From: Escherichia coli
GTDB taxonomy: Bacteria > Pseudomonadota > Gammaproteobacteria > Enterobacterales > Enterobacteriaceae
Strand: one strand, 5' to 3'
Length of the DNA stretch: 64,000 nt
Assembly: GCF_046105845.1 (NCBI RefSeq)
Contig: NZ_CP151004.1
Numbering within the stretch: the first letter of the stretch is position 1; the number at the start of each line of letters is the position of its first letter. The notes beneath the pieces were generated by a model. It saw only the letters and a list, made by a program, of their open reading frames with translations, was not told where the DNA came from and made no database searches. The position numbers and the translations under genes were made by a program. Below are positions 1 through 4,362 of the stretch, in pieces.

Positions 1-1201
1 CATCAACGAACTGGGCGACAAGAAAAACAACGTCGTTCCGATTGGTCCGCTGCACGTCACTTCTGACGAACCGGGCCACTTCCGTCTGTTCGTCGATGGC
101 GAAAACATTATCGACGCCGACTACCGCCTGTTCTATGTCCATCGCGGCATGGAAAAACTGGCGGAAACCCGCATGGGTTACAACGAAGTGACCTTCCTCT
201 CTGACCGTGTGTGCGGGATCTGCGGCTTTGCTCACAGCACCGCCTACACCACGTCGGTGGAAAACGCGATGGGTATTCAGGTGCCAGAACGTGCGCAGAT
301 GATCCGCGCCATTCTGCTGGAGGTAGAACGCCTGCACTCGCATCTGCTCAACCTCGGCCTCGCCTGTCACTTTACCGGCTTCGACTCCGGCTTTATGCAG
401 TTCTTCCGCGTGCGTGAAACCTCCATGAAAATGGCAGAGATCCTTACCGGTGCGCGTAAAACCTACGGCCTGAACCTGATCGGCGGGATTCGTCGCGATC
501 TGCTGAAAGATGACATGATCCAGACCCGTCAACTGGCACAGCAGATGCGTCGTGAAGTGCAGGAGCTGGTGGATGTGCTGCTGAGCACACCGAACATGGA
601 ACAGCGCACCGTCGGTATTGGTCGTCTGGACCCGGAAATCGCTCGCGACTTCAGTAACGTTGGCCCGATGGTCCGTGCCAGCGGTCACGCCCGTGATACC
701 CGTGCCGATCACCCGTTTGTTGGTTATGGCCTGCTGCCAATGGAAGTCCACAGCGAGCAGGGCTGCGACGTTATTTCCCGTCTGAAAGTGCGAATCAACG
801 AGGTCTATACCGCGCTGAACATGATCGACTACGGTCTGGATAACCTGCCGGGCGGTCCGCTGATGGTGGAAGGCTTTACCTACATTCCGCACCGTTTCGC
901 GCTGGGCTTTGCCGAAGCGCCGCGCGGCGACGATATCCACTGGAGCATGACCGGCGACAACCAGAAGCTGTACCGCTGGCGCTGCCGTGCGGCGACCTAC
1001 GCGAACTGGCCGACCCTGCGCTACATGCTGCGTGGCAATACCGTTTCCGATGCGCCGCTGATTATCGGTAGCCTGGACCCTTGCTACTCCTGTACCGACC
1101 GCATGACGGTGGTCGATGTACGTAAGAAGAAGAGCAAAGTGGTGCCGTACAAAGAACTCGAGCGCTACAGCATTGAGCGTAAAAACTCGCCGCTGAAATA
1201 A
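1..1201 (+). CDS. hycE: Formate hydrogenlyase hydrogenase-3 large subunit, 5'-truncated at window edge (C-terminal ~400 aa)
   Basis: ORF is open from position 2 in the frame of ORF 149..1201; the translation carries a NiFe-hydrogenase large-subunit C-terminal DPCxxC-type motif (LDPCYSCTDR) and is followed by hycFGHI. Confidence 0.9.
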   Translation, partial: INELGDKKNNVVPIGPLHVTSDEPGHFRLFVDGENIIDADYRLFYVHRGMEKLAETRMGYNEVTFLSDRVCGICGFAHSTAYTTSVENAMGIQVPERAQMIRAILLEVERLHSHLLNLGLACHFTGFDSGFMQFFRVRETSMKMAEILTGARKTYGLNLIGGIRRDLLKDDMIQTRQLAQQMRREVQELVDVLLSTPNMEQRTVGIGRLDPEIARDFSNVGPMVRASGHARDTRADHPFVGYGLLPMEVHSEQGCDVISRLKVRINEVYTALNMIDYGLDNLPGGPLMVEGFTYIPHRFALGFAEAPRGDDIHWSMTGDNQKLYRWRCRAATYANWPTLRYMLRGNTVSDAPLIIGSLDPCYSCTDRMTVVDVRKKKSKVVPYKELERYSIERKNSPLK

Positions 1202-1210
1202 GGAATCGCC

Positions 1211-1753
1211 ATGTTTACCTTTATCAAAAAAGTTATCAAAACCGGCACGGCGACCTCGTCTTATCCGCTGGAGCCGATTGCGGTTGATAAAAACTTCCGT
1301 GGTAAGCCAGAGCAGAACCCGCAGCAGTGCATCGGCTGCGCGGCCTGCGTCAATGCCTGCCCGTCAAACGCCTTAACGGTTGAAACCGACCTCGCCACAG
1401 GAGAGCTTGCCTGGGAGTTTAATCTCGGGCGCTGCATCTTCTGTGGACGCTGCGAAGAAGTTTGCCCGACGGCGGCGATCAAACTGTCGCAAGAGTACGA
1501 ACTGGCGGTGTGGAAGAAAGAAGACTTCCTGCAACAGTCCCGCTTCGCGCTGTGCAACTGTCGCGTCTGCAATCGTCCTTTCGCCGTCCAGAAAGAGATC
1601 GACTACGCCATTGCGCTGCTTAAGCACAATGGTGACAGCCGCGCGGAAAACCACCGCGAAAGCTTTGAGACTTGCCCGGAATGTAAGCGCCAGAAATGCC
1701 TGGTGCCGTCCGACCGTATTGAACTGACTCGCCATATGAAAGAGGCCATCTGA
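1211..1753 (+). CDS. hycF: Formate hydrogenlyase 4Fe-4S ferredoxin-type subunit
   Basis: 180 aa with two CxxCxxCxxxCP motifs ([24 protein letters not shown]); operon context. Confidence 0.92.
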
Positions 1754-2520
1754 TGAGCAATTTATTAGGCCCCCGTGACGCCAACGGCATTCCGGTCCCG
1801 ATGACGGTGGATGAATCCATCGCCAGCATGAAGGCGTCGTTACTGAAAAAAATCAAACGTTCTGCCTACGTTTACCGCGTGGACTGCGGCGGCTGCAACG
1901 GCTGCGAAATCGAAATTTTCGCCACGCTTTCGCCGCTGTTTGATGCAGAACGCTTCGGCATTAAAGTCGTTCCTTCACCGCGTCATGCGGATATTTTACT
2001 GTTTACCGGCGCGGTCACCCGTGCAATGCGATCCCCTGCGCTGCGTGCGTGGCAGTCCGCGCCGGACCCGAAAATCTGTATCTCCTACGGTGCCTGCGGT
2101 AACAGTGGCGGGATCTTCCATGATCTCTACTGCGTGTGGGGCGGTACGGATAAAATCGTCCCGGTGGATGTTTATATCCCTGGCTGCCCGCCAACGCCTG
2201 CCGCCACGCTGTACGGCTTCGCGATGGCGCTCGGCCTGCTGGAGCAGAAAATCCACGCTCGTGGGCCGGGTGAACTGGATGAACAACCGGCGGAGATCCT
2301 GCATGGCGATATGGTGCAGGCGCTGCGTGTGAAAGTAGATCGCGAAGCACGCCGACTGGCGGGTTATCGTTACGGTCGTCAGATTGCCGATGACTTCCTG
2401 ACACAGTTAGGGCAGGGCGAAGAACAGGTTGCACGCTGGCTGGAAGCGGAAAACGATCCGCGTCTGAACGAGATTGTCAGCCATCTGAATCATGTTGTTG
2501 AAGAGGCGCGTATCCGATGA
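1753..2520 (+). CDS. hycG: Hydrogenase-3 small subunit
   Basis: 255 aa; 1-nt TGATG overlap with hycF; Cys-rich small-subunit motifs (CGGCNGC, GCPP). Confidence 0.92.
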
Positions 2521-2927
2521 GTGAAAAGGTGGTGTTCAGTCAACTGAGCCGTAAATTTATTGATGAGAACGATGCCACGCCCGCCGAGGCGCAGCAGGTG
2601 GTCTATTACAGCCTGGCGATTGGTCACCACCTTGGGGTTATCGATTGCCTGGAAGCGGCGCTCACCTGTCCGTGGGATGAATATCTGGCATGGATTGCCA
2701 CTCTGGAGGCGGGCAGCGAAGCCCGCCGCAAAATGGAAGGCGTGCCGAAATATGGTGAGATCGTCATCGACATTAACCATGTGCCGATGCTGGCCAACGC
2801 ATTCGATAAAGCCCGGGCAGCGCAAACTTCGCAGCAGAAGGAATGGAGTACAATGCTGTTAAGTATGCTGCATGATATTTATCAGGAAAACGCCATCTAT
2901 TTGATGGTGAGGAGATTGCGTGACTGA
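2517..2927 (+). CDS. hycH: Formate hydrogenlyase maturation protein
   Basis: 136 aa; ATGA overlap with hycG; operon position. Confidence 0.9.
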
Positions 2928-3390
2928 CGTTTTACTCTGTGTTGGCAATAGCATGATGGGCGATGATGGCGCAGGCCCGCTACTGGCGGAAAAGTGCGCC
3001 GCCGCGCCGAAAGGTCACTGGGTGGTGATTGACGGCGGTAGTGCACCGGAAAACGACATTGTCGCTATTCGCGAACTGCGCCCTACGCGACTGCTGATTG
3101 TCGACGCCACTGATATGGGGCTAAACCCCGGCGAGATCCGCATCATCGACCCGGATGACATCGCCGAGATGTTTATGATGACTACCCATAACATGCCGTT
3201 GAACTACCTTATCGACCAGTTGAAAGAAGATATTGGCGAAGTGATTTTCCTCGGCATCCAGCCGGATATCGTCGGCTTTTACTACCCGATGACCCAGCCG
3301 ATTAAAGATGCGGTGGAAACCGTTTATCAACGACTGGAAGGCTGGGAAGGGAATGGCGGATTCGCGCAGTTAGCGGTGGAAGAAGAGTAG
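2920..3390 (+). CDS. hycI: Hydrogenase-3 maturation endopeptidase
   Basis: 156 aa, N-terminus [22 protein letters not shown]; overlaps hycH end by 8 nt. Confidence 0.92.
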   Translation: MTDVLLCVGNSMMGDDGAGPLLAEKCAAAPKGHWVVIDGGSAPENDIVAIRELRPTRLLIVDATDMGLNPGEIRIIDPDDIAEMFMMTTHNMPLNYLIDQLKEDIGEVIFLGIQPDIVGFYYPMTQPIKDAVETVYQRLEGWEGNGGFAQLAVEEE

Positions 3391-3448
3391 TTCGTAGACA
3401 AACATGTTCACGTTTTGGAATTTGGACGTGCAATTGTGACGTGTAGAC

Positions 3449-3473
3449 GGGTGTTTACATATTGTGAACACCC
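3449..3473. promoter_or_regulatory. Inverted repeat GGGTGTT-N11-AACACCC upstream of the toxin gene; candidate antitoxin operator
   Basis: Perfect 7-bp inverted arms read directly in the sequence; a second related pair (tgttcac near 3406 / gtgaaca near 3464) lies nearby; about 85 bp upstream of the ATG at 3557. Confidence 0.35.
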
Positions 3474-3556
3474 GTGTGATCAACTACTATAGAAAAATAA
3501 ATCCGAAGGAATGGTAGTCCAGGTTTAGTCATTCAGGCGCTAATAAGGAAGTTAAA

Positions 3557-3868
3557 ATGCACATCATTTCTAAAGCGCCATTTGAAGAGTGTGCGCGCAA
3601 ATATCCTAACGACGCTCTGGCTCTACACTCATTGTATCGGGTTATTAAGGAAACGGATTTTTCTACACCAGAAGAAATGCGAACGGCGTTTCCCAACCTC
3701 GACAATTTTAGATATCGCAACAAATGGTACGTTCTGGATGTCGGCGGGAACAATCTTAGGGTTATTGCCTACATAAACTTTGTTAATAAGCGGTTCTTTG
3801 TGAAGCACATAACGAATCACGCAGAGTATGACAAACTGACACGTTACTACAGAGAGAACAAAGAATGA
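3557..3868 (+). CDS. HigB-family (RelE/ParE superfamily) mRNA-interferase toxin
   Basis: 103 aa; recognisable similarity to E. coli HigB (FPNLDNFRY...YVLDVGGNNLRVIA); SD aaggaag upstream; toxin-first order typical of higBA. Confidence 0.75.
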   Translation: MHIISKAPFEECARKYPNDALALHSLYRVIKETDFSTPEEMRTAFPNLDNFRYRNKWYVLDVGGNNLRVIAYINFVNKRFFVKHITNHAEYDKLTRYYRENKE

Positions 3869-4284
3869 CTGCTAATGCTGCACGCGCTGTTAAAGCAACA
3901 AGAGAACTGGTCAATGCAGTCCCCTTTCTGGGAGGTAGTGACTCAGAAGATGATTATCGTGAAGCACTGGAACTGGTCGAATATTTGATTGAAGAAGATG
4001 ACACCAATCCACTTATCGACTTTCTGGCGAGCCGCATTGCAGAATATGAAAACAACAACGAAAAGTTTGCCGAGTTCGACAAAGCCGTTGCAGCAATGCC
4101 GGTTGGCGTGGCGTTACTTCGTACGCTGATTGATCAACATAATCTGACCTATGCGGATTTGAAGAACGAAATCGGCTCTAAATCCCTGGTCAGTCAGATT
4201 TTGTCTGGACAACGATCCCTGACGATATCCCATATTAAGGCACTTTCAGCCCGATTTGGCGTTAAGCCGGAATGGTTTCTTTGA
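3865..4284 (+). CDS. HigA-family HTH (XRE-type) antitoxin
   Basis: 139 aa; start overlaps toxin stop (ATGA); C-terminal HTH-like segment (GSKSLVSQILSGQRSLTISHIKALSARFG) resembling HigA. Confidence 0.75.
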   Translation: MTANAARAVKATRELVNAVPFLGGSDSEDDYREALELVEYLIEEDDTNPLIDFLASRIAEYENNNEKFAEFDKAVAAMPVGVALLRTLIDQHNLTYADLKNEIGSKSLVSQILSGQRSLTISHIKALSARFGVKPEWFL

Positions 4285-4310
4285 TTTTGACTGATGCCAA
4301 ACGCCAGATT

Positions 4311-4335
4311 GCCCGATGCGCAACGCTTATCGGGC
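4311..4335. repeat. REP-like palindromic element
   Basis: gcccgatgcgcaacgcttatcgggc resembles the REP consensus; lies between the antitoxin gene and the ascB 3' end. Confidence 0.4.
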
Positions 4336-4362
4336 TTTCCTGGTTAGTGCGACAGTAGTTAC

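Follow-up and report, generated by a model that had tools for sequence, protein, structure and literature searches.

A conserved 17-bp dyad as the likely autoregulatory operator of an accessory HigBA-type toxin-antitoxin operon between hycI and ascB in Escherichia coli

Background

Among the closest described systems is higBA (ygjN-ygjM) of Escherichia coli K-12, whose promoter has been mapped and is repressed by HigA in vivo; its inverted repeats are depicted as putative sites of binding (PMC2814082). In the K-12 genome (NC_000913.3), this promoter carries a first repeat, O1, reading CATCCGTTGCCA-ATC-TGGCAACGGATG, followed by a TATCAT −10 element and then by a second repeat, O2, reading TTGCCA-ATT-TGTCAAC. 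The K-12 O1 is also a perfect 27-bp palindrome, with arms of 12 nt that extend beyond the 7-nt half-sites (L030, 6495–6521). In the Rts1 HigB-HigA system of Proteus vulgaris, two inverted repeats, O1 and O2, overlap the −35 and −10 elements with an antitoxin dimer on each, and a single operator is enough for repression (PMC12266136). The P. vulgaris HigB-HigA proteins do not bind E. coli hig operator DNA, and Rts1 HigA is not organised like the HigA homologs of E. coli (PMC12266136). In Salmonella, SehB of the SehAB system represses its own promoter, over whose −35 and −10 elements two palindromes have been reported (PMC7160566); the original description of SehAB (PMC3868539) has been retracted.

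Here, we describe an accessory HigBA-type module found in a 64-kb stretch of E. coli DNA, referred to throughout as the window and numbered from its first base. Searches of the literature found neither a HigB module adjoining hycI nor an experimental characterisation of this HigBA paralog, for which a precise operator (17 bp, GTTYACA-N3-TGTRAAC) and a promoter model are now given.

Results

An accessory HigBA-type operon between hycI and ascB

The source of the window is E. coli, and the module sits in it between hycI and ascB in the following arrangement:

149–3390: hyc formate-hydrogenlyase genes, from hycE onward to hycI (hycI, PF01750)
3557–3868, plus strand: HigB-family toxin gene, 103 aa (PF09907, E 9e-23; 5ifg_A, E 1.8e-21)
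3865–4284, plus strand: HigA-family helix-turn-helix (HTH) antitoxin gene, 139 aa, the presumed repressor (PF01381, HTH_3; 5ifg_B, E 2.5e-35 over residues 9–138)
from 4363, strand opposite to the toxin-antitoxin genes: ascB, ascF and ascG

The toxin and antitoxin open-reading frames overlap by 4 nt, and in a PDB sequence search both matched the crystallised HigB and HigA of K-12 (5ifg_A and 5ifg_B), with an identity of 38% for the toxin and 46% for the antitoxin. RefSeq names the pair "type II toxin-antitoxin system HigB family toxin" and "helix-turn-helix domain-containing protein", and a search of NCBIfam with both proteins returned 0 matches. Between the stop codons of the antitoxin gene and of ascB is a GC-rich palindromic element of REP-like character (4296–4345), which is present also in strains that do not carry the module (L002, 750–800).

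Like K-12 higBA, the module is toxin-first and pairs a PF09907 HigB with an antitoxin of ~138 aa that has a C-terminal HTH_3 domain, but it occupies the hycI-ascB interval, whereas the K-12 operon lies between rlmG and fadH. The Rts1 hig operon shares the toxin-first order, the HTH antitoxin and the placement of operators over the promoter, whereas its operator sequences are unrelated, and the PDB search with the window antitoxin gave no match to Rts1 HigA at E ≤ 0.001. Salmonella SehAB is likewise a toxin-first HigBA homolog, but SehB is a different paralog of 142 aa. As an ortholog of the window module SehAB was rejected, since the SehB termini, as deduced from published primers, do not match those of the 139-aa proteins of the window family and the founding paper has been retracted.

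An extended palindrome in the hycI-toxin spacer

A palindrome lies directly 5′ of this toxin-first operon of HigB-family toxin and HigA-family HTH antitoxin genes. A sequence-only reading of the window had proposed the inverted repeat GGGTGTT/AACACCC, together with a related TGTTCAC/GTGAACA pair, as a candidate operator of the toxin gene. The elements concerned are these:

3405–3411: TGTTCAC heptamer, a chance-level partner of GTGAACA and at most a decayed half-site
3447–3475: extended 29-bp palindrome, with arms ACGGGTGTTTACA (3447–3459) and TGTGAACACCCGT (3463–3475)
3447–3452 and 3470–3475: outer arms ACGGGT and ACCCGT, specific to the allele of the window

GGGTGTT (3449–3455) and AACACCC (3467–3473), 11 nt apart, are present exactly where they had been placed and form the middle of a longer repeat, in which 12 of the 13 arm positions are complementary around a 3-nt spacer. 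A bare 7-nt repeat with a short gap is weak evidence alone: when the 166-nt hycI-toxin spacer was dinucleotide-shuffled, 14% of the shuffles contained a perfect one with a gap of up to 15 nt. A match of 12/13 over 13-nt arms was found in none of 500 shuffles of the spacer, and the whole window holds only 4 sites of this type, compared to ~0.65 per first-order Markov randomisation of the window. The main palindrome exists and is non-random. Its lone mismatch, T3456 opposite G3466, occupies the one half-site position at which Y/R variation is natural. Strain WL297 has two substitutions in the right arm, C3469T in the last base of the core and C3472T in the outer arm, and none in the left arm.

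The related pair fared less well. TGTTCAC (3405–3411) and GTGAACA (3464–3470) are present, 52 nt apart, but at no more than the chance level, since one or more perfect 7-nt inverted repeats, whatever the distance between the arms, arise in 53% of shuffles. TGTTCAC was rejected as a second operator arm or decayed operator copy, given this chance-level repeat, the 1.3 bits scored by the 17-mer from 3406 with the operator matrix described below, and the mutation of the heptamer to TATTCAC in strain WL297. Local similarity of the segment 3405–3427 to the operator plus its flank gave p of about 0.05–0.17.

A 17-bp core travels with the antitoxin gene

Relatives of the antitoxin with 70–82% identity were found in Salmonella, Cronobacter, Kluyvera, Pantoea, Yokenella, Mangrovibacter, Citrobacter and other genera. 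A contig scan with one genome per species gave 23 loci, and the upstream 200 nt were taken from the 16 in which an intact 103-aa toxin open-reading frame could be located; these 16 represent ~10 named genera plus metagenome-assembled genomes (MAGs), with Leclercia, Mangrovibacter, Kluyvera, Citrobacter, Phytobacter, Yokenella, Pluralibacter, Pantoea and Mixta among them. When these loci and two plasmids were compared, the only conserved upstream blocks were a 17-bp palindrome, a TATAGT-like −10 element and, mostly, a second copy of the palindrome, while the flanks and the spacer between the two copies, O1 and O2, were unrelated from one locus to another. In the window, the dyad axis of the extended palindrome is that of the conserved motif:

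3453–3469: operator O1 core, GTTTACA-TAT-TGTGAAC; family consensus GTTYACA-N3-TGTRAAC

The 17-bp motif is kept in loci L001, L003, L005–L024, L033 and L034 within differing flanks, so that among orthologs the site accompanies the antitoxin gene within otherwise divergent surroundings. This motif-anchored footprint points to the 17-bp dyad GTTYACA-N3-TGTRAAC as the operator. The HTH segment EIGSKSLVSQILSGQRSLTISHIKALS of the antitoxin is nearly invariant among orthologs, in step with the invariant operator. With a symmetrised matrix built from 25 orthologous sites, the window O1 scored 28.0 of a possible 30.7 bits; the runner-up in the 64 kb, located elsewhere, scored 8.1 bits, and the scan thus gave no second operator in the window.

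The comparison supports the proposal of a candidate operator 5′ of the toxin gene, and it redraws the extent of the site. The location was right, but the conserved bases are the inner GTTTACA and TGTGAAC, which lie mostly within the 11 nt that had been left as a spacer, and these half-sites are presumably the bases recognised by the antitoxin. Neither the other E. coli allele (L003, L001) nor any of the orthologs compared has the outer arms ACGGGT/ACCCGT. Conservation therefore lends good support to the inner 17 bp, rather than the GGGTGTT/AACACCC arms, as the functional unit, and because the outer arms are unconserved, part of the reported palindrome falls outside the operator model.

Anchoring on the motif gave the same order of elements in 11 loci: O1 as GTT[T/C]ACATATTGTAAAC, 21 nt of unrelated sequence ending in the TATAGT-like −10, O2 as GTT[T/C]ACATAATGTAAAC immediately 3′ of the −10, a further ~15–20 nt and the ATG. 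The Pantoea and Mixta loci have a site in the O2 position only. A soil MAG (L011) has a single hybrid operator ~35 nt 5′ of the toxin ATG, with an O1-like left flank and an O2-like right flank; the hybrid flanks point to a deletion that joined O1 to O2, with loss of the −10. Copies on Klebsiella and Enterobacter plasmids (L033 and L034, 320–375) encode a 78% identical antitoxin and have the full layout of O1, −10 and O2. Antitoxins of 60–80% identity are encoded on more than 500 plasmids, mostly of Klebsiella and Enterobacter, which suggests that a mobile pool was the source of the chromosomal module of E. coli.

One further locus (L004, JAIJJM010000690.1), labelled as a Collinsella sp. MAG, is a 1.6-kb contig whose antitoxin shares 99% identity with that of E. 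coli; it is probably Escherichia DNA that was mis-binned into, or contaminates, an actinobacterial MAG.

The same data bear on two rival explanations of the palindrome. It might be without function, having arisen by chance or neutrally in the rearrangement by which the neighbouring gene was lost, as would accord with the lack of conservation of the outer arms and of the upstream TGTTCAC, and with the ease with which short inverted repeats arise at random. The shuffling result for the 13-nt arms speaks against this, as does the fact that different genera and plasmids retain the inner 17 bp with the same placement relative to the −10 and the ATG, and we consider a chance origin very improbable. 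Alternatively, the site might belong to another host regulator or be a copy of a dispersed repeat, REP-like or a mobile-element end, a notion favoured by the REP-like element on the other side of the module. The motif has, however, no second occurrence in the 64 kb of the window, the spacer sequence is found at one place in each genome, and the motif moves with the toxin-antitoxin genes into unrelated contexts, all of which make such an identity exceedingly improbable. A REP/BIME-like repeat in particular was rejected, with one site in 64 kb and one place per genome for the spacer where many copies would be expected. Conservation and single-copy occurrence are thus what exclude chance and a dispersed repeat.

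Promoter architecture and proposed autoregulation

An autoregulatory operator remains the preferred reading of the 17-bp dyad, and the elements around it were predicted as follows:

3462–3467, plus strand: predicted −35, TTGTGA, within the right half-site of O1 (by homology to orthologs)
3485–3490, plus strand: predicted −10, TACTAT, 17 nt after the −35 (from the sequence and the anchored comparison)
3493–3544, plus strand: predicted 5′ leader, the O2 region of orthologs, with no operator-like site left
3545–3551, plus strand: Shine-Dalgarno AAGGAAG, 5 nt 5′ of the toxin ATG, conserved with L001 and L003

In the Klebsiella plasmid, a consensus scan called a promoter TTGTAA-17-TATAAT (10/12), and in the other E. 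coli allele (L003) it called TTGTGA-17-TATAGT (9/12), in both cases with the −35 inside the right half-site of O1; the −10 of the L033 plasmid promoter is the consensus TATAAT. The window has a CTATAG box at 3487–3492 in common with the CTATAGT −10 box of the orthologs, but it lies 3 bp further from O1, and for this reason the window promoter reaches only 8/12, below threshold, so that a strict sigma-70 scan of the plus strand of the window spacer called none. Transcription is predicted to start near 3497–3499. The orthologs' O2 beside the −10 is degenerate in L001 and L003, reading GTTCCGAACATATAAGGATAGAAC in this second E. coli allele, and is absent from the window.

We conclude that the element is very likely the operator (O1) by which an accessory HigBA-type type II toxin-antitoxin operon in the hycI-ascB interval controls its own expression. 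It is a dyad whose half-site centres are 10 bp apart, or one helical turn, and it overlaps a core promoter element, the predicted −35. A dimer of the 139-aa HTH antitoxin would bind the dyad at 3453–3469 and, alone or as a toxin-antitoxin complex, would exclude RNA polymerase, since the −35 TTGTGA lies inside the right half-site, and so repress transcription of higB-higA; loss of the antitoxin would then derepress the operon. We infer antitoxin binding, the exact promoter and start site, and repression. Because O2 is missing, repression in the window may be weaker, or otherwise organised, than in the orthologs. Its loss need not abolish control, as one operator can suffice in the unrelated Proteus HigA (PMC12266136). 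This scheme is consistent with textbook type II toxin-antitoxin autoregulation, the HigBA paralog itself being uncharacterised.

At the level of the operator, the module and K-12 higBA share a 7-3-7 geometry over the −35 and an O1 set within a longer palindrome, with arms of 12 nt in K-12 and 13 nt in the window. A second copy just past the −10 is common to K-12 and to the orthologs of the window module, whereas it has been lost from the window allele. The start-to-start distance from O1 to O2 is 29 bp in K-12 compared to 38 bp in the subfamily of the window module. The half-sites also differ at positions 4–5, with GTTGCCA in K-12 and GTTYACA in the window module family, so that the K-12 HigA recognition sequence GTTGCCA-N3-TGGCAAC and GTTYACA-N3-TGTRAAC belong to different specificity classes. 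Several HTH residues of the two antitoxins differ too (the EIGSKS... segment; SMVSRVLSGKRK versus SLVSQILSGQRS), and these differences are compatible with a changed specificity.

Alleles of the module in E. coli and the possibility of an RNA hairpin

The hycI-toxin spacer allele of the window was found in 343 of 5,426 complete E. coli genomes (~6%), with the spacer sequence in one place per genome. A second allele carries an extra hypothetical gene of 247–251 aa between hycI and the toxin gene (L003, 734–1477; L001, 1586–2341), which the window allele does not have; the full-length upstream region of this second allele is present in 748 of the complete genomes, and it is the commoner of the two. 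Overall, about 20% of complete E. coli genomes have the module. It is absent from O157 strains, and K-12 and BL21 have, beyond hycI and ascB, nothing matching it. The upstream regions of the two alleles are essentially unalignable, and the sole block that they have in common from hycI to the leader is GTGTTTACATATTGTGAAC. Some lineages (1EC213, AF6) have deleted the toxin gene, the promoter and the operator and keep an intact antitoxin gene, this orphan antitoxin (WP_000126294.1) following directly after the hypothetical gene or a truncated remnant (L031, 1190–1262; L032, 590–630).

The extended palindrome of the window allele might also act as RNA, with or instead of an operator function, as a 13-bp hairpin on read-through transcripts of hyc that would serve as a 3′-end stabiliser or as a weak terminator shielding the toxin-antitoxin operon. 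The plus-strand RNA would form a 13-bp stem with one G-U pair and a UAU loop at −21.5 kcal/mol (z = −4.6, with none of 200 shuffles as stable), placed 57 nt past the hycI stop, and no other terminator was called between hycI and the toxin gene. Only the allele without the intervening 247–251-aa gene has the outer arms, and both right-arm substitutions of WL297 would leave G-U pairs, as would ~38% of random pairs of transitions there. On the other hand, no U tract lies 3′ of the stem, which is followed by GUGUGAUCAAC, and the terminator scan was silent; a canonical intrinsic terminator of the hyc operon was accordingly rejected for want of the U tract, although the hairpin itself is stable and GC-rich. 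A known RNA family was rejected too, Rfam giving no match at E ≤ 1. Moreover, the conserved core is found where no upstream operon exists, as on plasmids, and its duplication around the −10 fits a DNA-binding site better than an RNA hairpin. We therefore regard an RNA role as unlikely and, given the missing U tract and Rfam family and the occurrence of the core without an upstream operon, as at most an addition provided by the allele-specific outer arms to the DNA operator that we favour.

Discussion

A wider reading of these data is tentative and, in our judgement, has a smaller chance of being right than wrong: the E. coli copies would record how a plasmid-type toxin-antitoxin system, once captured by the chromosome, lost its regulation step by step, the hairpin of the window could couple the module to hyc, and the half-site change could insulate HigA paralogs from one another. 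The first stage of such decay would be represented by the copies on plasmids and in other genera, with two perfect operators, O1 and O2; the second by the E. coli alleles, which keep O1 only, with O2 degenerate or gone; and the third by the other E. coli lineages, in which promoter, operator and toxin gene are missing and an orphan antitoxin gene is left. In the window allele, the surviving operator would have been extended to a 29-bp palindrome that could double as an RNA hairpin on hyc read-through, and if this were true, expression of the module would be tied to the upstream formate-hydrogenlyase operon.

Separately, the two-base half-site difference, GC in K-12 versus TA/CA at positions 4–5, could insulate the two HigA paralogs. 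Co-residence of the module with a K-12-type higBA was rejected as an argument for insulation, since the sole strain checked, KE55, does not have K-12 higBA: its hycI-ascB locus is 99.8% identical to the window, and its rlmG-fadH interval contains no K-12-type higBA (L036, 17474–17592). K-12 HigA and this paralog offer a small natural system for the study of repressor-operator specificity between paralogous antitoxins.

The "empty" hycI-ascB site of O157 (L002, 700–760) appears to keep a remnant of the 247–251-aa hypothetical gene, in which the start and the end of that gene are fused.
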